Below, piece after piece: positions 3,127 to 31,995 of a DNA stretch of 58,144 bases; within the stretch, counting starts at the first letter, position 1; each line of letters starts with the position of its first letter. The notes under the pieces are model-generated. The model worked only from the letters and a program-made list of their open reading frames with translations, ran no database searches and was not told where the DNA came from. This DNA comes from Phycisphaerae bacterium (GTDB lineage: Bacteria > Planctomycetota > Phycisphaerae > UBA1845), in the NCBI GenBank assembly GCA_028282665.1, contig JANQHN010000321.1:1-58144 (forward strand), written 5' to 3'. The position numbers and the translations under genes are program-made.

Positions 3127-3687
3127 ATGATAAAAGCAATTGACCTTCGCAAAGGACGCACCGTGATCTGGGAAGGGGAACTCTTCATCGTTCACGATTC
3201 CGAACACGTCACGCGCGGCAAGGGGCGAAGCTTGATGCAAGTCAAACTAAAAAACTACAAAACCGGCGCGATCATTGATCAACGACTCAACGTCGACGAC
3301 AAGCTCGAAACGCCGTTCGTCGAAACCAAAGACTACGAATACCTTTACCAGGACGGCGAGCAGTACGTGGTCATGGATAACGAGACTTACGAGCAGATTC
3401 ACGTGTCGGGTGATTTGGTCGGTGAAGCGACGCAATGGCTTAAGCCCAATGAAAAGATCACCTGCGAAGTGTACGAGGGAAATGTCATCAGCTTCGAGGT
3501 ACCGCACGTAGTGGAACTCGAGGTAACGGATACCCCCCCCGCAATCAAAGGCGCCACCGCGACCAACCAACTCAAGGAAGCGATCCTTGAGACCGGTGTG
3601 AAGGTTCGCGTTCCGCCGTTCGTCGAGAATGGTACGGTTATCCGCGTGGACACCCGAACGGGCGATTACATCGAGCGCGCAAAGTAA
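3127..3687 (+). CDS. efp: elongation factor P
   Basis: 186 aa. MIKAIDLRKGRTVIWEGELFIVHDSEHVTRGKGRSLMQVKLKNYKTG...YEYLYQDGEQYVVMDNETYEQ matches the EF-P three-domain consensus, including the GKG loop. Confidence 0.95.
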   Translation: MIKAIDLRKGRTVIWEGELFIVHDSEHVTRGKGRSLMQVKLKNYKTGAIIDQRLNVDDKLETPFVETKDYEYLYQDGEQYVVMDNETYEQIHVSGDLVGEATQWLKPNEKITCEVYEGNVISFEVPHVVELEVTDTPPAIKGATATNQLKEAILETGVKVRVPPFVENGTVIRVDTRTGDYIERAK

Positions 3688-3721
3688 CGACGCCCGACAT
3701 CGGACAATCGCAGGACCATAA

Positions 3722-3762
3722 CCCGCGTCAATGCCTGTGCAAGGTGCTGATGCGGGCTTTTT
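3722..3762 (+). terminator. candidate intrinsic terminator after efp
   Basis: cccgcgtca (3722-3730) pairs with tgatgcggg (3748-3756), 9 bp with one G-U. A cttttt run follows at 3757-3762, 35 nt after the efp stop. Confidence 0.5.
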
Positions 3763-3991
3763 CATGATTGAAGCGGACTTATGGAACACCGGACTGACAG
3801 CGGTTATACTCAACGTTTGTGGCAGTTAGAAAGCATCTTGCAGCAATGGATCGAGGGGGGAGTATCATCCTCGCGACGATCCGAGAAAATTGCCCGGGAG
3901 GCCTACCCAGCCTCACAGGCATCGGCTTCGATCCGTTACACCAATCGAAGGCCTCATTTCTTTTCCCATTCACCATTGAAGGGAGTCCGCC

Positions 3992-4471
3992 ATGGAAAAT
4001 ATGGATAAGTGTGTGCAGTTTTCCATCTTCCTGGTCAATAAGCCAGGCGTTTTGACGCAGGTCTTTCAAGAACTCGGCAAAGCGAAGGTAAACATCCTCA
4101 ACGTTGCAATGATGGACACCATGGAGCATGGCGTACTACGCCTCGTCGCGAACGATCCTATGGAGGCACGTCAGGTACTCAAGACGCTCAATGTCCCCGT
4201 CACCGAGACGGATGTTCTGTCCGTGACCCTCTCCAATCATCCGGGAGCAGCGGCGGATCTTTGTGAAAAATTGTCCAATGCCCACATTAACATCGGCTAC
4301 ATGTATTGCACTAGCGGCGGGACGCGTGGCGGCAAGACCCGCGTCATTTTAAAAGTGCCCGACATTAAGAAAGCGGCGAAGGTATTGGAGAATATCGGCA
4401 AAAGTCGCGGGAAAGACATGAAGGTGAAGCTTCGGCGACCTGGCGGAAAGCGAAACACAGCCTCGAAGTAA
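3992..4471 (+). CDS. ACT domain-containing protein
   Basis: 159 aa. Two beta-alpha-beta-beta-alpha-beta-like halves (VQFSIFLVNKPGVLTQVFQELGKAKVNILNV and VLSVTLSNHPGAAADLCEKLSNAHINIGYMY) are typical of tandem ACT domains. GAAGGGAG lies upstream of the ATG. Confidence 0.75.
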   Translation: MENMDKCVQFSIFLVNKPGVLTQVFQELGKAKVNILNVAMMDTMEHGVLRLVANDPMEARQVLKTLNVPVTETDVLSVTLSNHPGAAADLCEKLSNAHINIGYMYCTSGGTRGGKTRVILKVPDIKKAAKVLENIGKSRGKDMKVKLRRPGGKRNTASK

Positions 4472-4832
4472 CCACGAATCCTGATGGCGACGAGTGCGGG
4501 GCATCCCCCTCGCTTTCATGCGATATGCTTCGATTTTCGATCAGCCAATCCATACACCTAGCGCAAATCGAGCAGCCTCCACGCTCGAGGCAGACTGAAG
4601 GTTCTGCAAGCTCGCACCCAAGTTTGGTAGTGTGCGGCATTCAACGAATAGGCGAAATTTCGAGTCCTTGAACGGAGAGCCTTCGGATTTTCAGCATGAA
4701 TTGAAGTTGTCAACGCGAATATCTGCAACGTTTGACCGAATTCATGGGTGACCCCGCTTGTGCGACCGATTGTCAGATCGGGGGGGTTGCTATGATGACA
4801 GTGGAGCGTTTGGCTGCTTTAAGGAGTGTCTC

Positions 4833-6437
4833 ATGTTCAACCAGCTACACTTCGTGCGACTGAAAACCGCGGAGAAGGCCCTAAAGGAAGGCCGGCTGGA
4901 TGAAGCCCATCGTCTTGCCACCGCTCCCGACCTGTGTCACCAGCGCCGTGCCAAGGATGTGGTCAACCAACTCGCCACACATTTCCTTGAAAGAGCAAGA
5001 GAACATTATCGGGCGGATCGTTTCGACGAAGCACTCTCCGACCTTACCAAAGCGGCAGCGGGTGAAGTTCATACGGATGAAATCGACCAACTCCGCAAAG
5101 ACGTCGAAACCGTACGATCGGAACTAAAACGGAACGAAGTTTCTCGTCGCGACCGTATCCACGCGGCTAAACGTCGTATGGAGCGTGGTTCGCTTGTGGC
5201 CGGCCAGCGTATTCTCGAACAGGCAAGCGACTACGACGTCGACGCTCGTAGACTGCGCCAACAGTTTGAGCAGCGAGTGGAGGAGGTCGGTGACATTGCA
5301 CAACAAATCGGCGAGTTGATCGCGGAGGGACAGTGGCGTCAGGCTGCGACGCGCATCCGTCAAGGCCGTACGATCGACGCTTACAACCAAGGCATCGCCA
5401 AAGTTGAAGCCGATTTGTGCAAAAAGGTGCTCGAAGCTGCCCGCAAGTCCATCGCTACCGGACGACTCTCCCGCGCGGGTGATGAGCTTGATTGTATTTC
5501 GAGCCTGGGCAGTCGAGCGCCGGAACTGCTGGAACTCGCCGATCTATTGCGAATTGCCATCAACGCTCGCGAGCACGCTCGCAATCGGCGTTATTCCGAG
5601 GCACGGCGTGAAGTCCTTAGCTTACAACGTCTTATCCCCGAAGCAAAGTGGACCAAGGAGGCAGCCCAAGTGCTGGATAAGATGGACGACTTCCAAACAC
5701 AGCTTTGCAGTGGCCCGCTGGGTGAGCAGATCGATGCGAATCTACCCGATCAAGAAGATACAACGCCAGCCAACGGCACGCTGGCGGAAACCGTCGCCAT
5801 TCCAGGCCGGCGTCCGACTGCCGGTCCGAGTGTCACCACCGGCAAGGGATACCTGATGTTGGTGGACGGCGGTGGTAGTTACTTGATCGTCAAGACGGAC
5901 AATGCCTCTATCGGAAGAGTGGCATCAGAGAAACTCGCAGACATTCCACTCTTTAGCGATATTGGTGAGCGACACGCACAGCTTAGTCGCGTAGAGGACG
6001 ACTACTTCTTCGTCGCGAGTCAGCCGGCGGAGATCGGCGGCAGGCAGGTCACACAGCACCTGTTGCGGGACGGCGATCGGGTCGTCATGGGCCGAAAAGC
6101 TAAACTCTCATTCCGCATTCCGAGCATGAAGAGTGGAACAGCGGTGCTGGACCTCAGCGATACAACCAAGATGCCCAACGACGTCCGTCGCGTCGTATTG
6201 TTTCGTCATCATGCAACAATTGGGGCGGGAAACAGCGCCCATATTCGTTGTCAGCACGCTCATCCGCCACTTGTGTTATTCGAGCGGAAGGGCAAGTTTT
6301 TCGTTCGTGCAAAAAGTGACGGACACGTCGATAACCAAGCTTTGGAGATACGACTAGGCGAACCGGTGGAGATGATGGGTGTAAGTTTCGTGCTTCAACC
6401 CTGGCAGGTTCGCTCGATGGGCACGGCGGCAATTTGA
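4833..6437 (+). CDS. FHA-domain protein (helical N-terminal region, two FHA-like C-terminal modules)
   Basis: ATG 4833 is preceded by AAGGAG (4821-4826). The C-terminal parts (YLMLVDGGGSYLIVKTDNASIGR...HAQLSRVEDDYFFV...LLRDGDRVVMG and VLFRHHATIGAGNSAHIRC...FFVRAKSDGHV) fit the FHA beta-sandwich pattern. It lies directly upstream of a Ser/Thr kinase. Confidence 0.7.
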   Translation: MFNQLHFVRLKTAEKALKEGRLDEAHRLATAPDLCHQRRAKDVVNQLATHFLERAREHYRADRFDEALSDLTKAAAGEVHTDEIDQLRKDVETVRSELKRNEVSRRDRIHAAKRRMERGSLVAGQRILEQASDYDVDARRLRQQFEQRVEEVGDIAQQIGELIAEGQWRQAATRIRQGRTIDAYNQGIAKVEADLCKKVLEAARKSIATGRLSRAGDELDCISSLGSRAPELLELADLLRIAINAREHARNRRYSEARREVLSLQRLIPEAKWTKEAAQVLDKMDDFQTQLCSGPLGEQIDANLPDQEDTTPANGTLAETVAIPGRRPTAGPSVTTGKGYLMLVDGGGSYLIVKTDNASIGRVASEKLADIPLFSDIGERHAQLSRVEDDYFFVASQPAEIGGRQVTQHLLRDGDRVVMGRKAKLSFRIPSMKSGTAVLDLSDTTKMPNDVRRVVLFRHHATIGAGNSAHIRCQHAHPPLVLFERKGKFFVRAKSDGHVDNQALEIRLGEPVEMMGVSFVLQPWQVRSMGTAAI

Positions 6438-6496: not shown

Positions 6497-8944
6497 ATGG
6501 CCTACACATTCAAACATGGCACCCGTCCCCTCGACGATTACACGATACAGCGTGCGGTTGGCAGCGGTGGATTCGGCGAGGTGTATTACGCCGTCAGCGA
6601 CGGCGGGCGCGAGGTTGCCCTCAAGTACCTGCGCGACAATCCGGAGATCGAACTTCGAGGCGTGGGTCACTGCATGAACCTAAAAAGCCCGCACCTGGTT
6701 TCCATCTTCGACATCAAAAAGAACAACGACGGTGACTACTTCATCATCATGGAGTACATCTCAGGCCCGTCGCTTCGTGACATTCTGATTGCCGAACCCA
6801 ATGGCCTAGGCCAGCAAAAGGCTGCTTTCTTCGTTCGCGAAATCGCGAAAGGGTTAAGTTACTTGCACGATCGAGGCATCGTCCACCGCGACCTCAAACC
6901 CGGCAACATCTTTTACGACGACGGCTACGTGAAGATCGGCGACTATGGACTGAGCAAATTCATCGCCGTTTCGAGGCACAGCGCGCAAACGGCGAGCGTC
7001 GGCACTGTGCATTACATGGCACCGGAAATCGGCTCGGGCAACTATTCACGCGGCGTGGACATTTACGCCCTCGGCGTGATGCTCTACGAAATGCTGCTGG
7101 GCAAAGTACCGTTTGAGGGGTCGAGCATGGCCGAGGTGTTGATGAAACACCTGACCAGCCAACCCGAAATCGACGAACTCCCCGCCCCATTCGGCAAAGT
7201 GATTCGCAAAGCACTGGAGAAAGACCCAGCGGATCGCTATCAGACCGTGGACGAAATGGTGGAGGATCTGCTCGAAGTGCAAGATGTTCGGGAGAGCCTC
7301 GCAGGCTTTTCACCGCAGAGTTTGCAAGGCGCGGTGTACCGGGGCTCATCAGAGCCGGCTCCGTCCCCAAATCCTTCGCCCAATCCGTATGAAAACTTGC
7401 AACAACCAAGGCCTCAAACACCGCATCGGGCTGGAGAACAGGAAAACCTCCCGCCCTTCGCGATTCCTTTGCCGGACCGCCTGGCCCGCAAGCAGACCGC
7501 GATTTCACGCAAAATAGATTCGAAACTTCGCAAATTGGAAAGACGGGACGGCGTACGGCGTGATAAAGACGATCGAAACGATCCGCCTCCATACATACCA
7601 AGTAGCGATGCCGAGGCAATGGGTGGTCCGCCGCCCCCAGCCGGACACCAACAACGTACTATTGCTCCGGGCGAACACGTTAAGCGCATCACACTCGCGA
7701 TCTTTACATGGGCATGCCTCAGCATCTTGGCCGGGTTCGCGAGTGGAGCAATCTACGGAGACGAAGAAGAGGCGTTGGGCGCCGGTATGGCGGTTGCGCT
7801 TGGCAGCGTTGGGCTTTTTCTTTCGCGTAAAGTGCTCAAATGGGTCAGCAGCGAAACACAACCACTGTGGGTAGAACGAATCGTCCAGTTCGCTTGTTGT
7901 GCTCCTTGGGTGTTAATAGGACTGCTGCCTGCACAAGACGGCATGTCGGATAACGAATGGGCAGGATTGGTTATCGGCATGCTCGCTGTGGTGCTTTTAA
8001 ATAATTGGGACGGTGTTTTCAGGCAAGGCGCTGCCGGGACGATCAGCATATGGTCTGCCGCATGGACGGGGCTTTTCGCTTTAATCAGCGCCGCCGTCGC
8101 AAGCGGCATCGCCGACGGCGATCCGGACGATGTCATCGGCTTGGCGTTTGTAGCGGGTACGGGTTTGTCGCTAGTCGCCCAGGTTACCGGCTGGTGGCTT
8201 CCAGGCGTAGCCAATCGTCATGGTGGTGGAGGCCGACCAACGTCGGGACGATCAACAGATCATCCGCCTGCCGCGCCGAACGGACACGGCGAAAGCATGG
8301 AGATGTCCCATCACAGCAGAACAGAACAGAATTTCGGCGCAGCCGCAGACGAATATACGGAAAGGGTGGACCAGGATCAACACCATACAGCTTACGCTAA
8401 AACTGCGGGTGAAACCCTGACCGCACAGGAACGGATGGCCAAATTGGATCGGCTCGGCGAGCACAATCGCGACGGCAGAACCCGCCGCTGGGACATTACC
8501 CGGATGTTCTGGGCGTTCACTACGTTCGTATTCTTCCTTCTTTCCTGTGTCGTCTTCGTCGCTCCGCGCGCCTGGGCACGGGCGGATTACGACACGCAAT
8601 TCACACTGTCAATTGTGGCGTTCGGACTCTTCTGCGTTTGCATGTTCTGCACGACGAAGATGACCGTTTTCCGTCGCGCCGGCTTTTGGCGTGAAAGCTT
8701 CAGACCTTTCCTGATCTGTGCAAGCACCTTTGGCATCGCCAGCTCGATTTTTGCACTCGCCTCACACACGCACGAAAATAAGCCGTTCATCGTGTTACTT
8801 TGCCTGTCGAGCGTGGTTTTCCTGCTATCATTGATCTTTGGAGGCAGGAAACATCGTCGCGCCCGCCACGTGGAATCATTCATTATCAGCGCCAAAACTC
8901 CCGATGCCCACGCTCCAACCACCGAACCGCAAACGGAAATCTAA
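6497..8944 (+). CDS. Hanks-type Ser/Thr protein kinase with large polytopic membrane C-terminal region
   Basis: Motifs GSGGFGEVY, VALK, HRDLKPGNIF, DYGLSK and GTVHYMAPE sit in the first ~270 aa. A Pro-rich linker follows, then many hydrophobic segments. Confidence 0.9.
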   Translation: MAYTFKHGTRPLDDYTIQRAVGSGGFGEVYYAVSDGGREVALKYLRDNPEIELRGVGHCMNLKSPHLVSIFDIKKNNDGDYFIIMEYISGPSLRDILIAEPNGLGQQKAAFFVREIAKGLSYLHDRGIVHRDLKPGNIFYDDGYVKIGDYGLSKFIAVSRHSAQTASVGTVHYMAPEIGSGNYSRGVDIYALGVMLYEMLLGKVPFEGSSMAEVLMKHLTSQPEIDELPAPFGKVIRKALEKDPADRYQTVDEMVEDLLEVQDVRESLAGFSPQSLQGAVYRGSSEPAPSPNPSPNPYENLQQPRPQTPHRAGEQENLPPFAIPLPDRLARKQTAISRKIDSKLRKLERRDGVRRDKDDRNDPPPYIPSSDAEAMGGPPPPAGHQQRTIAPGEHVKRITLAIFTWACLSILAGFASGAIYGDEEEALGAGMAVALGSVGLFLSRKVLKWVSSETQPLWVERIVQFACCAPWVLIGLLPAQDGMSDNEWAGLVIGMLAVVLLNNWDGVFRQGAAGTISIWSAAWTGLFALISAAVASGIADGDPDDVIGLAFVAGTGLSLVAQVTGWWLPGVANRHGGGGRPTSGRSTDHPPAAPNGHGESMEMSHHSRTEQNFGAAADEYTERVDQDQHHTAYAKTAGETLTAQERMAKLDRLGEHNRDGRTRRWDITRMFWAFTTFVFFLLSCVVFVAPRAWARADYDTQFTLSIVAFGLFCVCMFCTTKMTVFRRAGFWRESFRPFLICASTFGIASSIFALASHTHENKPFIVLLCLSSVVFLLSLIFGGRKHRRARHVESFIISAKTPDAHAPTTEPQTEI

Positions 8945-11549: not shown

Positions 11550-14078
11550 ATGCCACATTACCTAAGTAATTCGAGCGAACAAGTGGCGAACAAACACCAA
11601 AAGAAATCAAGCGCCCACAAGGTGGACAAACATCAAAATGCTCAAAAACACGAACCACATGAGGCGCTTCCCTCGAATGAGAAAGTAGTGCAAAGTCCAT
11701 TGGCGGTATGGCTTGTGCTGGCTGCGATTGTTCTGTTTGGGCTGGTCCTCCGGCTTGTTTATCTCAGTCAAATACGGCCAATGGGCTTCTGGAATGTCAC
11801 CCTTTCAGATGCGCAAATATACGAAGATCGGGCGGCGGGTATCGTAGCGGGCGATTGGCTCGGTCCGGAGGACTTCGTACATGCTCCGCTTTATGCTTAT
11901 TTCATGGGCGCGATCCGTACCGTCGTAGGCGAGAGCCTGGCAAATGTGCGCATAGCGCAAGTGCTGCTCAGCGGCGCATCGCTCATTATTCTTTTTCTCA
12001 CAGGAAGACGCTTTTTCAACGAGCGTGTCGGGTTACTCGCCGCCCTGTTTCTCGCTATCTTCGCACCGGCTATCTTCTTTGACGGCATTATCCAAAAAAC
12101 TTCACTATCGCTATTCCTATCATGCCTTTTTCTTTGGCAACTCGCGCGATGTATGAACAATCCGGGGTACGTGGACTGGATCTTCGCAGGCGTCATCCTG
12201 GGCCTGCTCGGGTTAACTCGGCAAAACGCGCTGAGTTTGGGACTCATTCTCTTGGCATGCACGTTCTGGTATGGCAAGGACAAAACGCTGAAACTCAAGC
12301 TCGCGTGGTGCGGAGCGTGGTTACTCGCTTTGGTGTTGACACTTTCCCCTTGGGTTATCCGCAACAAAATGGTCACAGGTGAATTCGTCCTCACCACGCC
12401 CAACCTCGGACAAAACTTCGCGATGGGCAATCACCCCGACGCGACGGGCACCTACCTCCCCGCCAAGCGCGGCCGCGCATCCGCGGAGTTCGAACAAGAA
12501 GAATGGGTGCGCGAAGCCGAGCGCCAACAGGGAGCCCCTCCCGGATCACTCAGCGCAAACGAGGTATCTTCTTTCTACCTTTCGAGCGCCTTGGATTACA
12601 TTAAAGGAAACCCCGGTCATTTTCTAAAACTCACTGGTAAGAAAATCGCTTTATGCTGGAACATCTACGAAACACCGGACACTGAAGATTACTATGTCTA
12701 CGCGGAACACGCCCCACTGCTAAGTACGCTTGATCAAGTGCTGCATTTTGGCGGCCTGGCTTCGTTCGCGCTGCTTGGGATATTTCTCACGCGATCCAAT
12801 CACCGACGATACCGGCCTTTGTACCTCTGGCTTATCGTAACAACCCTGTCGGTAGCAGTCTTCGTGGTGTTCGCGAGGTATCGATTCCCGATGGTGCCGG
12901 TGCTCGCGCTCTTCGCAGCGGCGGGATTGATCGAGCTTGTAAAATTGTCATGCCGCAAAGATACTGGCAAGCTGATCACCGCAGCGATCATACTGGTGGT
13001 CACGTATGTCCTCACTAGTATCCCTATCCTCCACCCACCGGCACCATCCGTGCGTGGCTACCTCAATCACGGAGTTGCGCTGGCTCGTCAGCATCGCTAC
13101 GAGGAAGACTTTGAGCAAACCCACAAAGCACTGTCCCTCGACCCCGACAACGTCGATGCTCATCTTGCGATCGGTAACACGCTGCTCCAGTTGGAGCAAA
13201 ATGACGAAGCGCTAACTCACTACAGACAAGCCCTTAAAGGCGCGCCCAACGACCCCGTCGCGCTGCGAGGTGTGGCGAACGGCCTCCTGAAAAAGGGCGA
13301 AATCGAGAACGCGCGACTTTACTTCGAGCGAGCCTACCAATACGAATCGGACAACCCTCGAACCCTCAGCGGGCTGGCCACCTGCCTTGCGCAATCTGAT
13401 GAAATCGAAAAAGCTATCGAACTATTCCAACAAGCGATCGCATTGAATCCGAAGCTTGCCGATGCCCACGTGAATCTCGCCAATTGCTACCAACTTACTG
13501 ATCGAGCTGACGAGGCGTTGTTACATTACAAGAAAGCCGTTCGTTTGGATCCTAGAAGCCTCCCTGGCTGGCATGGTATGGTTGGCATCTACATGCAGTG
13601 CGAAGACTTCAACCGCGCAATCGAAGCGGGTCAGCGCGTGCGTGAACTCGACCCACAAAACGTTCAGATGCAGCAGTTCCTTTTAGGCCTGTGCCTAAAA
13701 CACGAAGATTTCAAGTGTCTCCTCGACCAGGTCGAATCGATGCTGGATGGCCCCAGTTTCGTCGCCGATCACACGGTACCCGGCATTGTGTCCGCACTAC
13801 TCAAAAAGATTGCGCACCGTGAGAATGTCGCAACTCTGTTGCGCGAACGGGCGTTGGCTGTAGCCGAACGATTATACAAATCGCACGACGAACCTTTGCC
13901 TGATGTTGTTCATGCTTATGTGCTGAGCTTGGCGGCGCTGGGAAATACCGAACTCGCAATAAAGGTCGCCCAACAAGCCGCGTCCACCACATCTGCCGAT
14001 TCCTCTGCATTTAAGCAGCTGATGCAGAAACTCGTAGAGCAATGCCGTCAAGGTCACAGACCTTGGGAGTTTGATTGA
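11550..14078 (+). CDS. GT-C type (ArnT/PMT-like) membrane glycosyltransferase fused to TPR repeats
   Basis: 842 aa. The N-terminal ~480 aa are polytopic and hydrophobic, with a first-loop acidic/aromatic motif (DAQIYEDRA..GDWLGPEDFVHAPLYAY). The C-terminal ~330 aa are TPR units (ALSLDPDNVDAHLAIGNTLLQLEQNDEALTHYRQALKGAPND...). Confidence 0.75.
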   Translation: MPHYLSNSSEQVANKHQKKSSAHKVDKHQNAQKHEPHEALPSNEKVVQSPLAVWLVLAAIVLFGLVLRLVYLSQIRPMGFWNVTLSDAQIYEDRAAGIVAGDWLGPEDFVHAPLYAYFMGAIRTVVGESLANVRIAQVLLSGASLIILFLTGRRFFNERVGLLAALFLAIFAPAIFFDGIIQKTSLSLFLSCLFLWQLARCMNNPGYVDWIFAGVILGLLGLTRQNALSLGLILLACTFWYGKDKTLKLKLAWCGAWLLALVLTLSPWVIRNKMVTGEFVLTTPNLGQNFAMGNHPDATGTYLPAKRGRASAEFEQEEWVREAERQQGAPPGSLSANEVSSFYLSSALDYIKGNPGHFLKLTGKKIALCWNIYETPDTEDYYVYAEHAPLLSTLDQVLHFGGLASFALLGIFLTRSNHRRYRPLYLWLIVTTLSVAVFVVFARYRFPMVPVLALFAAAGLIELVKLSCRKDTGKLITAAIILVVTYVLTSIPILHPPAPSVRGYLNHGVALARQHRYEEDFEQTHKALSLDPDNVDAHLAIGNTLLQLEQNDEALTHYRQALKGAPNDPVALRGVANGLLKKGEIENARLYFERAYQYESDNPRTLSGLATCLAQSDEIEKAIELFQQAIALNPKLADAHVNLANCYQLTDRADEALLHYKKAVRLDPRSLPGWHGMVGIYMQCEDFNRAIEAGQRVRELDPQNVQMQQFLLGLCLKHEDFKCLLDQVESMLDGPSFVADHTVPGIVSALLKKIAHRENVATLLRERALAVAERLYKSHDEPLPDVVHAYVLSLAALGNTELAIKVAQQAASTTSADSSAFKQLMQKLVEQCRQGHRPWEFD

Positions 14079-14156
14079 TCCTCAAGGATCAATCGGATAA
14101 CGTGAAAACAGCCGGATCATGAACCCATCGAGTCGCCGACGAACCAAGGAGCAAAC

Positions 14157-14930
14157 ATGCGAGCCACAAGCATGAGTTGGGTAAATCTGACGCTCGCCAT
14201 CATCACGATGGCGTGGCTGACCGCTTGCAACCCCGTCGTAGATGCCCCAGTCAACGATAACACGCCAGACGTGAATCCGAACAACAACACCAACGATAAC
14301 TTGTCCCCCGATGATGAGCTTGACGACAATGCCAACGACAATGACGCTGACGACGAGCCAAACGATGGCGGAATGCCCGACGACAATCCCGATGACGGCA
14401 GTGATCAGCCGGATGACGGCGTCGATGAGGACCCGGACAGCGGAGGCGATAACGATACCTCGGGCGACGAGGCGATGCCAGATTTTGCCGTGTTGGACGT
14501 AAACCCCACATCACCACGATACAACGAGGAAGTGTCGCCCCGCGACTACATAGGGCAGATTTCCGCGTGGTATTTCGGGCACTCGACGTGAGGTTACTGC
14601 CGAAGCCAGTTTGGCTTCCTCAACACCTTACAGGCTGAGTTCGACACAATTGAAACCGACCTGGACATTCAAATCCTTGGCGTCAACGACGTCTCCTACG
14701 AAAATGGCAATGTGACGATCGTGGCCGATAATGACATCCCCTGGCTTCAGCCCGTCGGTCGCGATGCGATATGGACCGACTGGCAGGTCATTTATCGCGA
14801 TGTCATCATCATAGGTCCAGGCAATGAGTACTTGGCTACATTCAATCTGTCGGAATTCGATCTTTCCAACACCGAAAGCTACGAGGCATTGAAGCAACTG
14901 CTGATTGAGGCCGCGACACAGTTTGATTGA
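14157..14930 (+). CDS. thioredoxin-fold (redoxin/TlpA-like) lipoprotein, candidate selenoprotein (Sec at codon 145, TGA 14589-14591)
   Basis: ORFs 14157-14591 and 14712-14930 share a frame. The 120 nt between them has no other stop. The joined product reads ...FAVLDVNPTSPRYNEEVSPRDYIGQISAWYFGHST-U-GYCRSQFGFLNTLQAEF..DIQILGVND...VIIIGPGNEY, which is a redoxin fold with UxxC in place of CxxC. AAGGAG lies before ATG 14157, and the lipobox is WLTAC. The downstream half has no SD or ATG of its own. Confidence 0.7.
14589..14618 (+). promoter_or_regulatory. candidate bacterial SECIS element (UGA plus downstream hairpin)
   Basis: GAAGCCA (14602-14608) pairs with TGGCTTC (14612-14618). The stem starts 11 nt after the UGA. 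The apical loop GUU (or AGUUU with a 6-bp stem) starts with G, about 18 nt after the UGA. Confidence 0.55.
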
Positions 14931-15643: not shown

Positions 15644-16723
15644 ATGTACACGCTGAGCAAAGGAGAACGAATTAGCAACTACTTGCTCGAAGCGCCCCTT
15701 GGACAGGGCAGCTTCGGCGAGGTGTGGCGGGCGCGGCATCACGTCTTTGACGATGTCGTGGCAATCAAAATTCCGACCGATCCGCAGTACGTACGTAACT
15801 TGCAGCGGGAAGGTCTTGTCGTACATGGCCTAAAACACCCCAACGTGGTTCGCGCGATCGATCTCGATCCGTACGCCACGCCGCCCTACCTGGTGATGGA
15901 ATTCATTGACGGGCCGACGTTGCGAGAGGCGATTGACAAGCTCAAAGACCGTTTCCCTCTGAAATCAGCCATCGCAATCGAGGAAGGCATCCTGCGCGCA
16001 CTCGATGCGGCGCACAAGACCGGACTTTTGCATCGCGACATCAAGCCGGCCAACATCATGCTGGCTCATCCATTGGATCAGATCGAAACGATTACGCCGG
16101 GCGGCGTAAAAGTCACTGACTTCGGTCTGGGGCGTGTCGGCGGCGATGTAGCGCAGTCCATCCTCATTAGCGGCCAATCTGAAACTGAGGGCGGTCGAAA
16201 CATCTCGGGAACGTTGGCATACATGTCCCCCGAGCAGCGTGAAGGTCGCGACCTCGACGGACGGTCTGATCTCTACGCTTGCGGTGTAGTGCTCTTCGAA
16301 ATGCTGACAGGCGAAAGACCTCAAGGACACGACCTGCCGACCATGTTACGGCGCCAGCTTCCCAAGCAGGTCGATGAATTCTTCAAAAAAGCGTACGCGA
16401 GGCAGGAAAAGCGGTACAAAGATGCCCAGGAAATGATCGACGACCTACTTCGCATCCCCACGGAATTGGTTGTTGCGGATCAGGGAAGCGTTAAATCGCC
16501 TCCTCCCCCGCCACAGACTTGGCCTCCCGGTCATGCTCATAAAAAAGAGGGCATTTGCTCATCTTGCAACACGCCGGTTCTACCTGAGGATCAATTCTGC
16601 ATCGCCTGTGGGCGATGTTTGGTCGAGGTCGTTCCTCGCTGTCCTCAGTGTAATGGATTCGTGGGGCGAAATGATTTGTTCTGCATCTTTTGCGGGCAGG
16701 ACCTGCGCAGGGAAACCGCGTAA
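15644..16723 (+). CDS. Ser/Thr protein kinase with C-terminal double zinc ribbon
   Basis: Kinase motifs GQGSFGEVW, VAIK, HRDIKPANIM, DFGL and GTLAYMSPEQ. The C-terminal CSSCNTPVLPEDQFCIACG...CPQCNGFVGRNDLFCIFCG gives two CxxC-N-CxxC ribbons. Confidence 0.9.
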   Translation: MYTLSKGERISNYLLEAPLGQGSFGEVWRARHHVFDDVVAIKIPTDPQYVRNLQREGLVVHGLKHPNVVRAIDLDPYATPPYLVMEFIDGPTLREAIDKLKDRFPLKSAIAIEEGILRALDAAHKTGLLHRDIKPANIMLAHPLDQIETITPGGVKVTDFGLGRVGGDVAQSILISGQSETEGGRNISGTLAYMSPEQREGRDLDGRSDLYACGVVLFEMLTGERPQGHDLPTMLRRQLPKQVDEFFKKAYARQEKRYKDAQEMIDDLLRIPTELVVADQGSVKSPPPPPQTWPPGHAHKKEGICSSCNTPVLPEDQFCIACGRCLVEVVPRCPQCNGFVGRNDLFCIFCGQDLRRETA

Positions 16724-23875: not shown

Positions 23876-24730
23876 TCATACACGCTCGCCCGAGTCGGAA
23901 AGTACCCACCCGGCATTTCCATCGGGCAGTTCGATACGCCACCACGCGCCTCGTTCTTCCAACACGGTGAACTCGACGCCCGCCTGGAGAGGTTGGGCGA
24001 ACTGCTTTTGGTACCCCTCACCCGGTCCTTTCCGCACGGTGACGTCGGTGCCGAGAAGGACCGCAGGAGGTGTGCGCTCGTTGCTTTGACGTTCATAAAT
24101 CACGGAACCAATCGACATCGCACAAAACAAGCCCGCAGCTAGAGCGCACCAAGCCACTGCCTGCGAGCGCACGAAATTGCGTATGAGAAGGAGAATCCAA
24201 AGGGCTGCAAACAGCGCGATCGCGGCACGGATTCTACCTCCCATTGTGGTGTCGAAGTGCCAGAACAGCAACGAACGCAACAGTTTGTCCCGGCCTGCAG
24301 TCGCGATTTGATTCACCCGTCGTTCGCGCGCGAGATTCAAGTTGTGTGCGAGGTAGGGGTCGCGCGGGATGAGGCGCTGCGCTCGGCGGTAGTGGAGAAT
24401 GGCCTCACCGATGTCGCCGGCTTGCAAGTAGGCGTTGCCAAGGTTGTATTCGAGTTTCCCGTTTGACACGCCGCGTGCGATGATGGTTTCCAGTTGGGTC
24501 GCGACGTTGCGAAAGATGCGCCTGGCTTCGTCGGGATTTGCTTCAAGCAGAGCTTGCGCTCGGTCAAACTCCTCCAATGCTGCCGCGATGCGTTCCTCGT
24601 CGGCGGGCGCGGCAGCCATCTCCGCCCAAACCGGTGCCGACGTCATCGACAAGACAACAAGCCCAAGAATACGGATGAGCATTGCCTTTAGCGCGGCTGG
24701 TCGCGAATTGGGCGAAAAGACACCAGTCAT
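23876..24730 (-). CDS. batE: BatE-like protein (signal peptide, TPR, TM segments, C-terminal SH3b)
   Basis: 284 aa. Has the TPR LEYNLGNAYLQAGDIGEAILHYRRAQRLIPRD and a C-terminal SH3-like VTVRKGPGEGYQKQFAQPLQAGVEFTVLEERGAWWRIELPDGNAGWV. ATGA overlap with batD. Confidence 0.75.
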   Translation of the reverse strand: MTGVFSPNSRPAALKAMLIRILGLVVLSMTSAPVWAEMAAAPADEERIAAALEEFDRAQALLEANPDEARRIFRNVATQLETIIARGVSNGKLEYNLGNAYLQAGDIGEAILHYRRAQRLIPRDPYLAHNLNLARERRVNQIATAGRDKLLRSLLFWHFDTTMGGRIRAAIALFAALWILLLIRNFVRSQAVAWCALAAGLFCAMSIGSVIYERQSNERTPPAVLLGTDVTVRKGPGEGYQKQFAQPLQAGVEFTVLEERGAWWRIELPDGNAGWVLSDSGERV

Positions 24731-26520
24731 GATTTCGCCACCTCCTTGATAATCGATTCTGCCCGGTCAATAAGGCGATTGGCTTCTTCTTCCGCCCCCC
24801 CCATACCCGCGTAGCTCGCCTGCTCACATTCTCGAATGAAATCCACAACCATCGTTCGTGTTTTGTCTTTTATCCCAAATTCCATAAATCGGGCGTTGAG
24901 TTCTTCACAAGCAAGGTGACCTGTCGGAAGATTTAACCAGTCAGCCACGAAGCGCCCTACCGCCTGACCCGTCTTGTGGATTTTGTCGGCACTCACGGAA
25001 GATCGCCTGGCCTCCTGAAGCATTTCCTTCGCTACCCCGTGCGCTTGACGTCGCCGCGCGTACGCCGGATCGGTGGACAGGCGTTTTCGTCGTAGCGTGA
25101 TAAACGTGACCAGCAAATAAACAGCAGGAGGGAAGCAGAGGGTCGCAGCCCACACCGGTGTCAACAAAAACTGCTGCGACGCGACAAGTCTACTTGCATT
25201 TGCATAGTTGGGCATGATCCCTCCGCTGAGCACCGTGAGTGTCTCGCTCTCGGGTTTAGCCTCTGTCCCATCGGTTAGTTGTATTGCGCCTAGCTGTTTG
25301 GACGGCGGATCGACTACGATGTCCAGTGCGTCGCTACGCAACGTTACGTACGCCTCTTCGACGGGGTCGAAGTAAGACATAGAGAGCGGAGGAATGGTTT
25401 GCTCGCCCTCACGCTTGGGAAACACCGCCTTGCGAAACACTTTCGCATCGTCCTGGAGTTCGCCTACGAGTTCTTCACGCGTGAAGTCAAACCGACTGAC
25501 GAGTTCGGGTTGCAAACTCAGGTCCGGTCCGGGGGCGCCTGCGATCGGATCGCCTTGAAGCTCGATTGTAATGGTGACGGGTTCGCCCAGTTCGATGCGC
25601 TGCGGCTTGGCGCTAACATTCATATCGTACCGGCCAATCGCGCCTACGTAGTCGGCAGGTTTGCCATTCTCCGGCGGCGCTTTGACGACGACAATAATCG
25701 CATCGGCCCGAGCAGTAGCACGCTCAGCATCCACCACGGTCAGTTCGCCCCAAATGTTTCGTCGCACTGCGGTTGGATAGTTGACCCGTGCGAAGATCGG
25801 ACCGATTTGCGCTTGACCGGGATCGGCTGCTACGAAGTCAACGGTAAAATGGAAGACTTTGTACGCGTGCCGTTCACCATCCGAATCAGTCAGCCAAGTT
25901 TGTCTGTAAGTGCCTTGCCTCTGTCGAATCACATCCAAAAAAATGCCAAACTTTGATCGCTCAAGATCCAGAACATTGCGTATCAGATCGATATCCACAA
26001 CCTGGCCGCGCTGGGTGAATTCGCGAATGTAGAGTTTCAGTGTGGCACGATAGGTTTGTGTCACATAAACAGCATCCGGAAAGACCTCCAACTCCACGAA
26101 GACGAGGCTTTCGGATTTGGGCTTGATAGTCGGCTCGCGTACGAAAACGTTGGTCGTATCCGTGGTGTATTCCCGCCCATCGGCCGTAACAGTGAACGGA
26201 CCTACCTCGTAGCTGCCCGCTTTGGATGCGGTGAGGCTGAGGAAATAGGTGTAGGTAGCCCGTTCGGTGCGGCGTCCGTTGACGATGCTGACCATCGACC
26301 GCTGCGAAGGATTGGGGTTCAAAAGCTGAATTTCCAAATTTTCCCGCGCAACAACCTGAGGAGCAGACGGCACACCGGTGTTGGTGCAAACCAACTGCAC
26401 CAGCACGGGTTCGCCAACCTCAATCGACTTCGATTGAATGTTCACCGTTACGCCAGGCGACTGTGCGAAAACCGCCGAGGCGATGCATAACGATACGAAA
26501 AAAAACGCGTATTTGGACAT
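24727..26520 (-). CDS. batD: BatD-like (oxygen tolerance family) protein
   Basis: 597 aa with a signal peptide, repeated beta-rich segments, one late TM helix and a cytoplasmic tail. Its position between BatC and BatE is as in the Bacteroides Bat operon. Confidence 0.75.
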   Translation of the reverse strand: MSKYAFFFVSLCIASAVFAQSPGVTVNIQSKSIEVGEPVLVQLVCTNTGVPSAPQVVARENLEIQLLNPNPSQRSMVSIVNGRRTERATYTYFLSLTASKAGSYEVGPFTVTADGREYTTDTTNVFVREPTIKPKSESLVFVELEVFPDAVYVTQTYRATLKLYIREFTQRGQVVDIDLIRNVLDLERSKFGIFLDVIRQRQGTYRQTWLTDSDGERHAYKVFHFTVDFVAADPGQAQIGPIFARVNYPTAVRRNIWGELTVVDAERATARADAIIVVVKAPPENGKPADYVGAIGRYDMNVSAKPQRIELGEPVTITIELQGDPIAGAPGPDLSLQPELVSRFDFTREELVGELQDDAKVFRKAVFPKREGEQTIPPLSMSYFDPVEEAYVTLRSDALDIVVDPPSKQLGAIQLTDGTEAKPESETLTVLSGGIMPNYANASRLVASQQFLLTPVWAATLCFPPAVYLLVTFITLRRKRLSTDPAYARRRQAHGVAKEMLQEARRSSVSADKIHKTGQAVGRFVADWLNLPTGHLACEELNARFMEFGIKDKTRTMVVDFIRECEQASYAGMGGAEEEANRLIDRAESIIKEVAKS

Positions 26521-27516
26521 TTACCAATCCTTCTTCTCATTACGCGGCGCCGGCTGGGCGGGCACGTACTCGACACGGTCCTGTTTACGGCGGCGCATCT
26601 CGTCGATCAGTTGACGCAATTGACGCAAGGCCTGCTCCAGCGACTCCTCATTGGGCTCGGCCTGCTGCGGCGTGGCTTGTGGTTGTTGTTCATCCTCACC
26701 TTGTGGCGCCTGCTGCCGCTCAGTCTCCTGCGCTTGATCCCGTTGCTGTTGATCTTGATTTTGCTGCGATTCCTGTCGCTCGCTGGATTGGTCCTGCTGT
26801 TGTTGATTCTGCTGGCTTTGTTGCTGATCCTGTTGTGGGTCCTGTTGCTCTTGATTGTCGTTTTGTTGTTGATCCTGCTGTTGTTGCTGCTGGATCTCCT
26901 TGAGTTGTCTCCAGACAGTGCCAGCCTTGTAATTGGCTTCCCGGGCGGCAGCGTGACCAGGGTTGGCCCCCAATACATCCTGGTAACCACGCATGGCGCG
27001 TTCGAACGAACTGATCGCTGCCTGCGGGTCGTCGCCCTGTTCGAGCGCTTGCAAGTGATCCGCCGCAGCCCGAGCGAACATCGCGTCATCCGCCAGCTTG
27101 CGATCTTCACCATAAGCAGCCTTCTCAAACGCGGCGCGCGCTTTGTCGTATTCTTTTAGGCGTAAATGACCAAGGCCCGTGTTGAAATCGATCTCCTTAG
27201 CGTCCGGCAGCTTTTCACGAGCAGCCAAGTATGCATCCAACGCTTCACGAAGTTTTTCCGCCTCAAATAGCGCGTTTCCTTCACTCACAAGTTTACGCGC
27301 GTTCGCCCGTTCGGAACGCGAAGCAGGTGCCTCTCGATCCACTTCTGATGCAGTTGCCGGATCGGCAGATTGTGTTTCTTCCGTCCTTCCCGGTTCATTA
27401 GCGATGGGCAAATTGCTCGAACTCGATGTAGCTTGCGCGTAACCGAGATCCGGCGACATCAACAATCCGCCTGCGACGCAAAAAGCGAACAAGGCGTATC
27501 GGCTGCATTCGCTCAT
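26521..27516 (-). CDS. batC: BatC-like TPR protein with Q-rich C-terminal tract
   Basis: 331 aa from ATG 27516 (ATGA overlap with the batB stop, GGAGGGAG upstream). Has a signal peptide, TPR units (LVSEGNALFEAEKLREALDAYLAAREKLPDA...), then ~80 aa dominated by Q/D/E. Confidence 0.75.
   Translation of the reverse strand: MSECSRYALFAFCVAGGLLMSPDLGYAQATSSSSNLPIANEPGRTEETQSADPATASEVDREAPASRSERANARKLVSEGNALFEAEKLREALDAYLAAREKLPDAKEIDFNTGLGHLRLKEYDKARAAFEKAAYGEDRKLADDAMFARAAADHLQALEQGDDPQAAISSFERAMRGYQDVLGANPGHAAAREANYKAGTVWRQLKEIQQQQQQDQQQNDNQEQQDPQQDQQQSQQNQQQQDQSSERQESQQNQDQQQRDQAQETERQQAPQGEDEQQPQATPQQAEPNEESLEQALRQLRQLIDEMRRRKQDRVEYVPAQPAPRNEKKDW
26661..26895 (-). repeat. coding low-complexity CAG/CAA (Gln)-rich tract
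   Basis: The plus strand is ctg/ttg-rich (ctgctgttgttgattctgctggctttgttgctgatcctgttg...). It encodes QQQQQQDQQQNDNQEQQDPQQDQQQSQQNQQQQDQ... Confidence 0.8.
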
Positions 27517-28679
27517 GATTCTCCCTCCTGCTGCCACGTTCGCGTTGGCAGGTCTGCAGTCGATCTGCGCCGCTCGCTAATAAACGGCTCAACGCACAGC
27601 AGTGCAATGCAGGCTGCAAGAAACCATTGATAGCGTGGCCTGGTTCGCTCGCGACGTTCGGTCGTCAACAACTCCCGGTGCATATCCGCGATCCCCTCGA
27701 CCACCCAGGACAGGTGCTCCAAGGGGGTATAACGTCCTTCACCCACTTCCGCGATGCGAGACAAACCCTGCGGGTCGATTTTGGAAAAGACGATTTTACC
27801 TTCGTACACGAGCGGCTTGGCTTTAGGTGTGTCATCGCTAGGCACTTCCGCGCCGGCGGCCAGCGTCGGATCCCCCGCTCCAACAGTGAAGGTTCGCACA
27901 CCGTCTTCCTGATAGACGGTCTGGGCGGCGGCAATGGGGTCGCCCTCGTGATCCTCGCCGTCTGTAACGATCAAGATAATTTTTGTCGCCTTTTCCGGCG
28001 AGGAAGCGAAAAACTCGGCGGCGGCGTAGATCGCTTCCGCGATCGCGGTTCCACCTTGAGGCGCGCTGCGAATGTCAACCTTATCCAACGTATCACGGAA
28101 AAAAGCGTGGTCGAGACTTAAAGGCACCTTCATCGAAGTGGCTCCCGCGAACACGAGCAATCCCAGCCGGTTCGATCGGTTGAACAGATTCCGCTCGGTC
28201 AATTGCCTTCGAAGTTCTTCTTTGGCGCGGGTAAGGCGGTTGGGCGAAAGGTCGCGGGCGAGCATCGAACGTGACACATCCAGGGCAACCACGACATCCA
28301 CGCCATACGCCTCTTCCTCCTCGATGTACACTCCCCATCGCGGCCCGACAATTGCGGCAATGAGCAGCACAAATGCCGTCATCACCAAGCAGGCGCGAAC
28401 GACCTGCCTGCTGGAAATAAATCGTGTACCCAACAGCGGCGCGAGCGCAGCAGAAGTGAATCGAGTAAGTGCCCTCCGTTTGCGATACAGCCCCCACACA
28501 TAGAGCAAGCTGGCTATCGGAACTACGCATATCAGCCACAAAAGATCGAAATTGTCGAAAGGCCAATCTCCAATCTCTGTGAGCAAAATTGCGCAAAGAC
28601 CCGCAAACGCCAACGCGACGGGCCAAATCAGCACCCACACAACCCAGGCTGCTTTTGCGTATATCTTTTCTGGCGTCAC
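27513..28679 (-). CDS. batB: VWA domain protein BatB
   Basis: 388 aa with N-terminal TM helices and a VWA MIDAS motif (VVVALDVSRSM ... IILIVTDGEDHEG). Four-nt overlaps on both sides. Confidence 0.85.
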   Translation of the reverse strand: MTPEKIYAKAAWVVWVLIWPVALAFAGLCAILLTEIGDWPFDNFDLLWLICVVPIASLLYVWGLYRKRRALTRFTSAALAPLLGTRFISSRQVVRACLVMTAFVLLIAAIVGPRWGVYIEEEEAYGVDVVVALDVSRSMLARDLSPNRLTRAKEELRRQLTERNLFNRSNRLGLLVFAGATSMKVPLSLDHAFFRDTLDKVDIRSAPQGGTAIAEAIYAAAEFFASSPEKATKIILIVTDGEDHEGDPIAAAQTVYQEDGVRTFTVGAGDPTLAAGAEVPSDDTPKAKPLVYEGKIVFSKIDPQGLSRIAEVGEGRYTPLEHLSWVVEGIADMHRELLTTERRERTRPRYQWFLAACIALLCVEPFISERRRSTADLPTRTWQQEGES

Positions 28680-29773
28680 GGCACCGTCCTAAATCGCGTA
28701 TTGATCAACAGCACCTCAAAAAACAGTAAACCCAATCCAATGAGCATCGCGTATCGCGCTGCCTGCGTGTCATCGCGATACGCACGATCGCCGGTAGCCT
28801 GCCGTTCAAGCTTGTCGATCTGCTCGTAAATTTGCGTGAGTGAACGAGTATCCATCGCTCGGAAATACGCGCCGCCGGTAGTGCTGGCGATACGCTTGAG
28901 CGTGGGTTCATCCACACGGTCAGTTCGACCAAATCCGGGTAACATCCTTGTCTGCCCAATGGCACCGATTGTGTAAATCTTGATGTCAAATTTTGCCGCA
29001 AGCTTGGCTGCCTCGACCGGATTGGGTACGGATTCCCGGAATTCCCTAGGTGGATTGTCAGACCCATCCGTGAGCAGGATCATCACTTTGCTCTTCGCGG
29101 CCTCTGCGCCGGGCAATCCCAAACGTGCTTGCTCACCCGCTCGACGCAGTTCGTGCGTTGCGAGAGTGATGGCGCTCCCCAACGACGTGTGCATGGATTC
29201 AGGATGTTCCCATCGCTGTTGTCCGTTGATCCACCCGGGGATTTCCGTCGCTCTTAACAACTCGGCAAGGTTGGCATGATCGAGAGTTAGCGGGCATCGC
29301 GTATCGGCGTAGTAAGCAAACGTCGTCATACCAATAAGATCGTTAGGCCTGCCCGGGAGCCTGTCGGTCCCGAGCACAAAATCGCGAAACACCTTCTTCA
29401 CCGCGTCAATGCGGCGGACCCGCTTGCCGTCGATGACAAAGTCCTGATCGGACATGCTGCCCGATACGTCGAGAACCATCTGAATCGCAATACCTTCCCG
29501 CGATTCCGCAACCTCTCCACCCATCTTCGGTCGCGCGAGGGCAAAAACCAGAGCAAGGATCGCACAGATGCGGATAAAAGGTACAATCCAACGAATACGT
29601 GTGACAAAGCTGGGTGAGACGCGCTTTACGAAGGCCAATGATGAGAACCTTATCGTTGGTGGCTTAGTCGCAAGATAACGAACCCATATAAGCGGTGCGA
29701 ATAACAAAAACACTACACAAAGCACACCGAAGATAAATCCCGGTTGAAAACGTTCGAACAATTGATCGATCAT
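28676..29773 (-). CDS. batA: VWA domain protein BatA
   Basis: 365 aa from ATG 29773 (ATGA overlap with the upstream stop). Has TM helices, VWA motifs (IQMVLDVSGSM ... VMILLTDGSDN) and a C-terminal TM. Confidence 0.85.
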   Translation of the reverse strand: MIDQLFERFQPGFIFGVLCVVFLLFAPLIWVRYLATKPPTIRFSSLAFVKRVSPSFVTRIRWIVPFIRICAILALVFALARPKMGGEVAESREGIAIQMVLDVSGSMSDQDFVIDGKRVRRIDAVKKVFRDFVLGTDRLPGRPNDLIGMTTFAYYADTRCPLTLDHANLAELLRATEIPGWINGQQRWEHPESMHTSLGSAITLATHELRRAGEQARLGLPGAEAAKSKVMILLTDGSDNPPREFRESVPNPVEAAKLAAKFDIKIYTIGAIGQTRMLPGFGRTDRVDEPTLKRIASTTGGAYFRAMDTRSLTQIYEQIDKLERQATGDRAYRDDTQAARYAMLIGLGLLFFEVLLINTRFRTVP

Positions 29774-31032: not shown

Positions 31033-31086
31033 TGCTCAACACTCCTTGCGATTATCTCTTTGTTTGCGGATGCTCAATGTCGCCGC

Positions 31087-31965
31087 CTAAATTCGCGCCT
31101 CTCGCCTTCGAAAAAAACGAACAATCGGCTCCACATAGGATTGATCCGTACGAATGTCGATGCGGTCGGTATCCATTTTCCGGAACATCTCGTCGAGCCG
31201 TCGCGCGTGCTCCGCCGCTTGCAGCGCGAAACCACGGCGAATGAATCGGCTTTGAGTGTCCACGATCATCGCCTCGCCAGTCTCCGCGTCGTGCAGTTCC
31301 ATCAGGCCTACCCCGGGCAATTCCATCTCTCGCGGATCGGTAATCGTAATCGGAATCAGGTCGTGCCGACGGCGCGCGATGCGCAGTTGTCCCTCATAAG
31401 CGCCCGCGTCTACAAAGTCGCTGACCAGAAAACAGACTGATTTGCGAATGGTCACGCAGTTAAGAAACGTCAACGCCTCGCCTATATTCGTGCCTCTGCC
31501 CTCCGGCGTATGGTAGAGCAGTTCACGCACGATGCGTAACACGTGTTTCGTACCCTTCTTGGCAGGAACGTACTTTTCAACGGTATCCGTGAAGAGAATC
31601 AAGCCAACCTTATCGTTGCTGCGAATGGCGGAGAAGGCGAGCACCGCACAAAGCTCCGCCGCTAAATCGAGCTTGAATTGCTGCACACTCCCGAATAGGC
31701 CCGAACGACTTACGTCGACGACGAGCATCACCGTCAGTTCCCGCTCCTCGCGGAACTTCTTGACGTATGGATCACCGAACCGCGCCGAAACATTCCAATC
31801 AATAAGCCGTACGTCATCGCCAATCTGATAGGGCGTAACTTCCTCGAACTCCATACCCCGCCCGCGAAACGCAGAATGATACTGTCCCGCCAACACATCG
31901 TTGACGGTTTTTGATGTTCGTATCTGGATCTGGCGGACTTTGCGAAGTAACTCCTTGCTAATCAT
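31087..31965 (-). CDS. DUF58 domain protein (MoxR-associated)
   Basis: 292 aa. MISKELLRKVRQIQIRTSKTVNDVLAGQYHSAFRGRGMEFEEVTPYQIGDDVRLIDWNVSAR is the DUF58 signature. Confidence 0.85.
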   Translation of the reverse strand: MISKELLRKVRQIQIRTSKTVNDVLAGQYHSAFRGRGMEFEEVTPYQIGDDVRLIDWNVSARFGDPYVKKFREERELTVMLVVDVSRSGLFGSVQQFKLDLAAELCAVLAFSAIRSNDKVGLILFTDTVEKYVPAKKGTKHVLRIVRELLYHTPEGRGTNIGEALTFLNCVTIRKSVCFLVSDFVDAGAYEGQLRIARRRHDLIPITITDPREMELPGVGLMELHDAETGEAMIVDTQSRFIRRGFALQAAEHARRLDEMFRKMDTDRIDIRTDQSYVEPIVRFFRRREARI

Positions 31966-31995
31966 TGCAAATCCTCGGCAATCGCAAATTCACAA

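Follow-up and report, generated by a model that had tools for sequence, protein, structure and literature searches.

A probable selenoprotein gene of the TUGYCR thioredoxin-fold family, with a compact covarying SECIS-type hairpin, in a Phycisphaerae bacterium

The contig JANQHN010000321.1 of a Phycisphaerae bacterium (assembly GCA_028282665.1), analysed here over its whole length of 58,144 nucleotides and called the window below, contains at positions 14157–14930 of the forward strand a frame of 257 codons with a single internal stop, the TGA at 14589–14591. In translation this codon, number 145, lies between ...ISAWYFGHST and GYCRSQFGFL.... The frame is read here as one gene for an exported thioredoxin-fold protein in which the UGA encodes selenocysteine (Sec), and the probability that it is a genuine selenoprotein gene is put at about 0.9. 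A sequence-only reading had proposed such a gene from two same-frame open reading frames (ORFs) split by nothing other than this TGA; that arrangement holds, the coordinates and distances it gave are all correct on re-reading of the sequence, and those of its predictions that sequences could check were all borne out. The elements of the locus, including a hairpin of the selenocysteine insertion sequence (SECIS) type, are the following.

14145–14150, + strand: Shine-Dalgarno sequence AAGGAG, 6 nucleotides (nt) ahead of the ATG at 14157 (direct sequence inspection).
14157–14930, + strand: predicted complete selenoprotein gene, 257 codons including Sec145, terminal stop TGA at 14928–14930 (translation and NF053656 match).
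14157–14228, + strand: lipoprotein signal peptide MRATSMSWVNLTLAIITMAWLTAC with the lipobox L-T-A-C24 (translation).
14229–14474, + strand: acidic, Asp/Asn/Pro-rich low-complexity tether, residues 25–106 (translation; outside the NF053656 match).
14475–14912, + strand: redoxin_TUGYCR thioredoxin-fold domain, residues 107–252, aligned to positions 1–146 of the 146 in NF053656.
14589–14591, + strand: UGA, read as Sec145, first position of U-G-Y-C (TGA in 83/83 family genes; Cys codons in the same column in CxxC relatives).
14598–14600, + strand: TGC, Cys148, presumed resolving cysteine of UxxC (invariant column C42 of alignment A3).
14602–14618, + strand: putative SECIS hairpin, with 5' arm 14602–14607 GAAGCC, loop 14608–14612 AGUUU and 3' arm 14613–14618 GGCUUC.
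14712–14930, + strand: spurious 72-residue 'ORF' with an internal GTG start, which is the C-terminal half as gene callers give it (ORF listing).
14739–14741, + strand: CCC, Pro195 in the invariant P-W-L-Q, a candidate cis-proline (invariant column P89 of A3).

The read-through protein, searched with Cys entered at the U position, matches the NCBIfam model NF053656.1 (redoxin_TUGYCR, 'TUGYCR motif thioredoxin fold (seleno)protein') with an E-value of 5.1e-61; its score is 204.8 bits where the cut-off is 100. The model is matched end to end at twice its cut-off, which bears out the proposal that read-through yields a complete thioredoxin-fold protein. The T-U-G-Y-C-R signature is present as HST-TGA-GYCR at 14580–14603, with the TGA as its U codon. 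As had been anticipated of standard gene callers, an ORF listing under genetic code table 11 breaks the gene into 14157–14591 (144 residues) and the same-frame GTG-start fragment of 72 residues, and large protein libraries contain the same two pieces, P0008 for the N-terminal part and P0028 for the C-terminal one (72 residues, 99% identical, aligned by phmmer to residues 41–112 of the query that follows U). Inspection of the sequence finds neither an ATG nor a Shine-Dalgarno sequence immediately 3' of the TGA at 14589–14591, in agreement with the view that the downstream half has no start signals of its own, and no Shine-Dalgarno sequence ahead of 14712. A promoter and terminator scan gave no signal exceeding that of shuffled sequences.

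The UGA is conserved throughout the family. Scanning one genome for each species brought up 211 relatives; 80 of these loci were taken and exact-protein look-ups added two, so that the window and these 82 loci give 83 family genes. The 82 loci belong to Phycisphaerae, Planctomycetaceae/Pirellulales, Polyangiaceae and other Myxococcota, Eisenbacteria, Krumholzibacteriota, Gemmatimonadota and Latescibacterota; their identities are 44–62%, and the nearest relative in the genome collection is another member of the Phycisphaerae (62% identity). The U codon, within the motif T-U-[G/S/P/A/T]-Y-C, is TGA in all 83 genes, which represent at least seven phylum-level groups. Beyond the TGA the frame runs for a further 107–119 codons (65 loci), and pairwise divergence at the three codon positions is 0.38/0.32/0.52 downstream of it and 0.29/0.21/0.50 upstream, a pattern which on both sides is the signature of translated sequence. 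The tblastn alignments span the stop (query residues 1–149), and nearly all proteins that came up in a word-indexed search end at ...WYFG(H/A)(S/A)T, truncated at the same site. Invariant in alignment A3 are U/C39, C42, the QFG that follows, ILGVN, P-W-L-Q and YRDV. At the level of sequence, the family presents an in-frame UGA with conserved coding on both sides, as selenoproteins of the bacterial SelB/SECIS type do.

The first base of the hairpin is the 11th nt beyond the UGA (10 nt lie between), and the G of its loop is 18 nt after the UGA. Folded alone, it has a minimum free energy (MFE) of -8.3 kcal/mol, and its 81-nt context has a z-score of -2.06 against shuffled sequences. An ungapped alignment of 81 distinct sequences, comprising 9 nt upstream, the TGA and 57 nt downstream, shows that the conserved stem is 6 base pairs (bp) long, formed by 14602–14607 with 14613–14618, and that the loop is AGUUY across the family (AGUUU in 50 sequences, AGUUC in 30, AAGUU in 1). 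The sequence-only reading had described GAAGCCA/UGGCUUC, a stem of 7 bp: the hairpin is present at 14602–14618 and seven pairs can indeed form in the window, but only six are conserved family-wide, the seventh, A14608–U14612, being limited to the AGUUU variants (50/81). The 81 hairpins of Sec forms have a median of -8.3 kcal/mol (range -5.2 to -10.5), and 64 of them reach -7.5.

Base pairing in the stem is maintained by covariation. Columns 23–28 and 34–39 of the alignment are paired in 99.4% of cells, and double compensatory changes occur in five of the six stem pairs. As many as 23 arm combinations are seen, for example GAAGCC/GGCUUC, GUAGCC/GGCUAC, GUGGCC/GGCCAC, GUAUCC/GGAUAC, GCGUCC/GGACGC and GAAGUC/GACUUC. 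The covariation score is 0.463, compared with 0.153 ± 0.015 for shuffled alignments (none of 500 reaches 0.463) and at most 0.076 with slid partners, and RNAalifold applied to the family alignment predicts exactly this 6-bp hairpin and nothing else. The covariation and the TGA in 83/83 genes go far beyond what chance would give. The stem falls inside the codons for C-x-x-Q-F-G-x, in the active-site helix, and forces the protein to change along with it: the residues at U+4/U+5 and those at U+8/U+9 change together as RS..GF, SS..GY, SG..GH, SI..GY, VG..GR and, once, RS..DF (window positions 14601–14621; columns 22–42 of alignment A2). One gene swaps the conserved Gly for Asp (AGU/GAC), and the base pair is preserved.

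The published model of the bacterial SECIS has a loop of 3–9 nt with G in the first two loop positions followed by U, a stem of 4–16 bp, a spacing of 16–37 nt and an MFE of at most -7.5 (PMC13188914). The window hairpin lies within all of these limits, with the loop taken as AGUUU or GUU, a stem of 6–7 bp, a spacing of 16–17 nt and -8.3 kcal/mol, at the compact end of the published range and with the spacing at its lower limit. It resembles the E. coli fdhF-type SECIS and the general bacterial model (Zhang and Gladyshev; PMC13188914) in being an in-ORF hairpin directly 3' of the UGA, with G then U in a small apical loop. It differs from them in being very compact, with a conserved stem of 6 bp and without a conserved lower stem, and in lying inside C-x-x-Q-F-G-x.

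More distant relatives, with Cys in place of U, serve as a control. The 112 residues that follow U were compared by phmmer with 1.84 billion representative proteins, giving 617 matches at E ≤ 0.001, most of which start just past the U position and are further C-terminal fragments. Among the 34 representatives that span this position, 29 contain CxxC (for example FYFAHAD-C-SYC and WYFGHST-C-GYCRSQF), two have a false W and one is a multi-domain protein with degenerate motifs. The TGA thus corresponds to the first position of a UxxC redox motif, as had been proposed, with Cys there in 29/34 site-spanning relatives. The Cys codon expected of homologues at this position was also looked for in DNA, and TGT or TGC was found in all four Cys forms examined at that level (L085, L087, L088 and L089). 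The 17-mer in the same register has in these four genes a folding energy of only -1.2 to -3.9 kcal/mol, so that the hairpin is weak or absent. In L085 the peptide TCGYCRSQF is identical to that of the window except for U replaced by C, but its codons CGT TCG CAA TTC GTG GTA break the stem, which indicates that the hairpin tracks the UGA and not the protein motif. As judged from nucleotide sequences, the hairpin is tied to the UGA forms, and this is the behaviour expected of a SECIS.

The N-terminus of the protein is that of a lipoprotein: the signal MRATSMSWVNLTLAIITMAWLTA is followed by C24, and the lipoprotein nature that the sequence-only reading proposed is seen in the translation as the lipobox L-T-A-C24. 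A lipobox is present in most homologues: the strict pattern occurs in 49/83 family members, while others show one on visual inspection, begin with the planctomycete motif 'LEERLML' or seem to have a type I signal peptide. The tether between the lipidation site and the domain differs in length among homologues and is unusually long in the window protein (~80 residues).

The fold was approached through an AlphaFold2 model of the homologue P0004, which is 47% identical and has W at the U position; the model is based on 7 aligned sequences and has a predicted local distance difference test (pLDDT) score of 62 and a predicted template-modelling score (pTM) of 0.58. Its secondary structure elements follow the order beta-alpha-beta...beta-beta-alpha, with the residue at the U position opening a long helix (74–90), and by this model Pro195 would be placed before the beta3 strand. 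The top 50 matches listed by Foldseek in the PDB are all thioredoxin-fold proteins, mostly extracytoplasmic and membrane- or lipid-anchored, and include ResA, TlpA, DsbE, Etrx1/2, StoA, DsbF and Sco1 (E ~1e-5, target-normalised template-modelling score 0.55–0.72). A profile search of the PDB by sequence has DsbE (3gl3) as its closest match, with an E-value of 0.24. The protein is read as a lipoprotein of TlpA/ResA/DsbE-like fold that probably acts as an extracytoplasmic selenol/thiol oxidoreductase, and from the motif and the model we infer that it would use a U145–C148 selenenylsulfide.

The best structural matches, TlpA, ResA, DsbE (CcmG), StoA and Etrx of the cd02966 type, are all anchored to the membrane or by a lipid and face the periplasm or the cell surface, have an N-terminal beta-hairpin extension and carry an XxxC redox centre where helix 1 begins; in S. 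pneumoniae, Etrx1/2 are lipoproteins too. Unlike them, the window protein shows no significant match to the Pfam families Redoxin (PF08534), AhpC-TSA (PF00578) or Thioredoxin_8, and it has F-G-H-S/A-T-U-G-Y-C in place of W-C-x-x-C. The selenoproteins catalogued so far (PMC13188914) include Sec-containing 'thiol-disulfide isomerase-like' and 'UGC-containing TlpA family' proteins; the window protein would work as these do, but stays below the Pfam thresholds of their families. Sco1/SenC proteins, membrane-anchored and periplasmic, are also among the fold matches (2b7k, 6n5u, 4wbj). The local Y-F-G-x-T-x-C recalls the Sco motif 'YFGFTHCPDxCP', a resemblance to be taken as a lead only. Membership of this group was rejected, the window spacing being UxxC as opposed to CxxxC with a distal His, and PF02630 (SCO1-SenC) gives no match.

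In the proposed mechanism, the UGA at 14589–14591 would be recoded to Sec during translation, with the 17-nt hairpin acting as a bacterial SECIS whose AGUUY loop, exposing G and U, would recruit SelB-GTP-Sec-tRNA(Sec) to the ribosome when the UGA occupies the A site. The signal peptide would direct export of the product; lipidation would take place on Cys24, and the acidic stretch of ~80 residues would serve as the tether. The U145-G-Y-C148 centre, predicted to lie at the N-terminus of helix alpha1 in a TlpA/ResA-like fold, may cycle between the selenol/thiol and selenenylsulfide states and in doing so reduce, or exchange with, an extracytoplasmic substrate.

Several results weigh against the selenoprotein reading. 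The 58-kb window and the flanks of the 82 related loci (~1.3 Mb) were searched by tblastn with E. coli SelA, SelB and SelD and by a tRNA-Sec search, and neither yielded selA, selB, selD or tRNA-Sec. The lone SelB-like tblastn match, in L048, is CysN, adjoining CysD. The Pfam scan of the read-through protein gave nothing significant, its top match being Glutaredoxin with an E-value of 0.24, below threshold. Rfam, which contains few bacterial SECIS models, has no family that reaches its gathering score on the window, and a search of the hairpin region at E ≤ 10 gave just unrelated matches of chance level. The evidence on the fold comes from a 47%-identical homologue modelled with modest confidence, the Cys control at the DNA level is a small sample (n = 4), and no paper in the library searched names a TUGYCR or UGYC motif. 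A comparison of neighbours across the 83 loci gave no widely common neighbour and no hint of a substrate or redox partner.

Some Planctomycetes are documented to possess complete Sec-insertion gene sets together with candidate Sec-containing thiol-disulfide oxidoreductases (PMC4807772), which makes the Sec trait plausible for the lineage.

The alternative that survives best, improbable as it is, takes the read-through to be independent of SelB: the hairpin would aid near-cognate decoding of the UGA (e.g. as Cys or Trp) in a genome devoid of Sec machinery, or serve as a regulatory pause or attenuator giving short and long products. In some systems a hairpin directly 3' of the stop codon can favour read-through, and the lack of Sec machinery in the window and in the related-locus flanks would suit this explanation. 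However, the geometry and the G-U loop fit the SelB-type bacterial SECIS consensus, the UGA stands exactly at the position of the catalytic Cys of relatives, and NCBI curators class the family as selenoprotein. Moreover, where the codon has become one for Cys the hairpin is gone, which is what Sec/Cys switching predicts.

A nonsense mutation, sequencing error or pseudogene lesion, which would leave the gene dead or with a 144-residue product only, would agree with the truncated product of table-11 calling and with the failure to find Sec machinery in the window, but its probability is negligible. A private lesion cannot explain a TGA in 83/83 independent genes of several phyla. The downstream frame is intact, conserved in length and evolving as coding sequence, the hairpin covaries, and the related loci, only 44–62% identical, are not artefacts of one sequence. 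The strain-specific nonsense mutation or error, named from the outset as what would overturn the proposal, is ruled out by this conservation across phyla.

Reassignment of UGA to Trp (code 4) or Gly (code 25), with residue 145 an ordinary amino acid, is scarcely credible. In its favour are the public metagenome gene calls of the Joint Genome Institute (JGI) for P0004, P0033 and P0160, which show W at the U position, where the DNA of P0033 has the codon TGA; these calls apparently stem from an alternative genetic code chosen on short contigs, and the resulting proteins are of full length but wrong. In the window, however, TGA ends 12 of the 33 long ORFs, including this gene, and the one at codon 145 is the sole in-frame TGA in ~17,245 codons. 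Neither W nor G would make catalytic sense at the first position of a CxxC-type centre that has Cys in relatives, and UGA reassignment is not known in Planctomycetota, Myxococcota and similar groups, to which the carriers belong. The P0033 gene (L086, 218–757), with its TGA at the W-called position, has a hairpin identical to that of the window.

The notion of two genes, a 144-residue N-terminal lipoprotein and a small protein starting at GTG 14712, has next to no probability: P0008 and P0028 are indeed separate database entries, but the 120 nt that separate the TGA from the GTG specify in frame the most conserved part of the family (GYCRSQFGFL...ILGVN), the Cys forms are continuous single proteins, NF053656 spans the junction end to end and 14712 lacks a Shine-Dalgarno sequence.

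Read as a selenoprotein gene, the locus is a member of NF053656, with a full-length domain match and the identical T-U-G-Y-C-R motif. It differs from that family in nothing of kind; the window protein is at most 62% identical to its nearest relative and has the unusually long acidic tether. NCBI curation under NF053656 already covers the selenoprotein nature of the family. The family seems to be curated in NCBIfam and unpublished, and Table 1 of a review of May 2026 (PMC13188914), with its 119 families and subfamilies, does not include NF053656. Selenoproteins that combine a UxxC centre, a thioredoxin fold and a canonical SECIS inside the ORF are an entirely familiar kind of system, and the findings leave the current understanding of Sec decoding unchanged. 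What they add is evidence stronger than the model name alone, namely TGA in 83/83 genes, a covarying 6-bp SECIS that Cys forms have lost, and covariation among amino acids that the RNA dictates. A further suggestion is tentative and rather unlikely to hold in full: that the TUGYCR clade consists of essentially Sec-obligate exported redoxins, mostly lipoproteins, which published catalogues of prokaryotic selenoproteomes have missed, that they act on a new extracytoplasmic substrate, and that their 17-nt hairpin is a near-minimal natural bacterial SECIS which, through its place in the active-site helix, dictates the residues after the redox centre.

For annotation, the locus would become one selenoprotein of 257 codons instead of a 144-residue hypothetical protein and a 72-residue fragment. 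The protein collections examined hold many truncated halves of NF053656-type proteins, plus a few sequences with a false Trp. The source Phycisphaerae-like genome is a probable selenocysteine user, with a surface- or periplasm-exposed selenoenzyme added to its redox repertoire.

Variants of the domain occur in several protein contexts. P0001–P0007 and L002 (6001–7020) have tandem domains, in which the redox centre is lost from the first, TUGYCR-like domain (T-T-A-Y-A-R, without U or C) and retained as T-U-G-Y-C in the second. P0029 (612 residues) contains several degenerate domains in series and ends in '...CWFFGLSS', with probably another UGA there. Cys-form domains are found as C-terminal modules of giant proteins of 944–1609 residues (P0042, P0077 of L085, and P0102 of L089), with Cadherin and Big_9 matches on record for P0102 and a faint Beta_helix match for P0077, and are fused to a conserved C-terminal extension of ~140 residues in P0031, P0045 and similar proteins of ~310 residues. 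Because the Cys forms occur in giant proteins and in such fusions, the TUGYCR-type domain seems to be widely used outside the cell.

A scan of the unannotated space of the window for further candidates with an in-frame TGA left 14157–14930 as the only credible one. No CcdA/DsbD or cytochrome-maturation genes are linked to the gene. One upstream ORF cluster (median 554 residues, ~3.3 kb upstream) is common to 14/83 loci, including the window, and is assumed to reflect local synteny. The gene immediately upstream (11550–14078, + strand) encodes an 842-residue protein with PMT_2 (glycosyltransferase family 39-like) and TPR regions, and in L002 the selenoprotein gene adjoins one for a TPR protein of comparable size (846 residues; 3348–5888, - strand), which lies on the opposite strand. 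Ser/Thr protein kinase genes stand on both sides of the locus (6497–8944 and 15644–16723, both + strand), the second with C-terminal double zinc-ribbons. Further along, the co-directional genes at 24727–33012 (- strand) for a MoxR-type AAA ATPase, DUF58, an unassigned 420-residue ORF, BatA/VWA, VWA, TPR and BatD form an aerotolerance (Bat)-type operon. An HSP20 gene is also among the neighbours, and an uninterrupted ORF of 5196 codons occupies 33808–49398 (+ strand).

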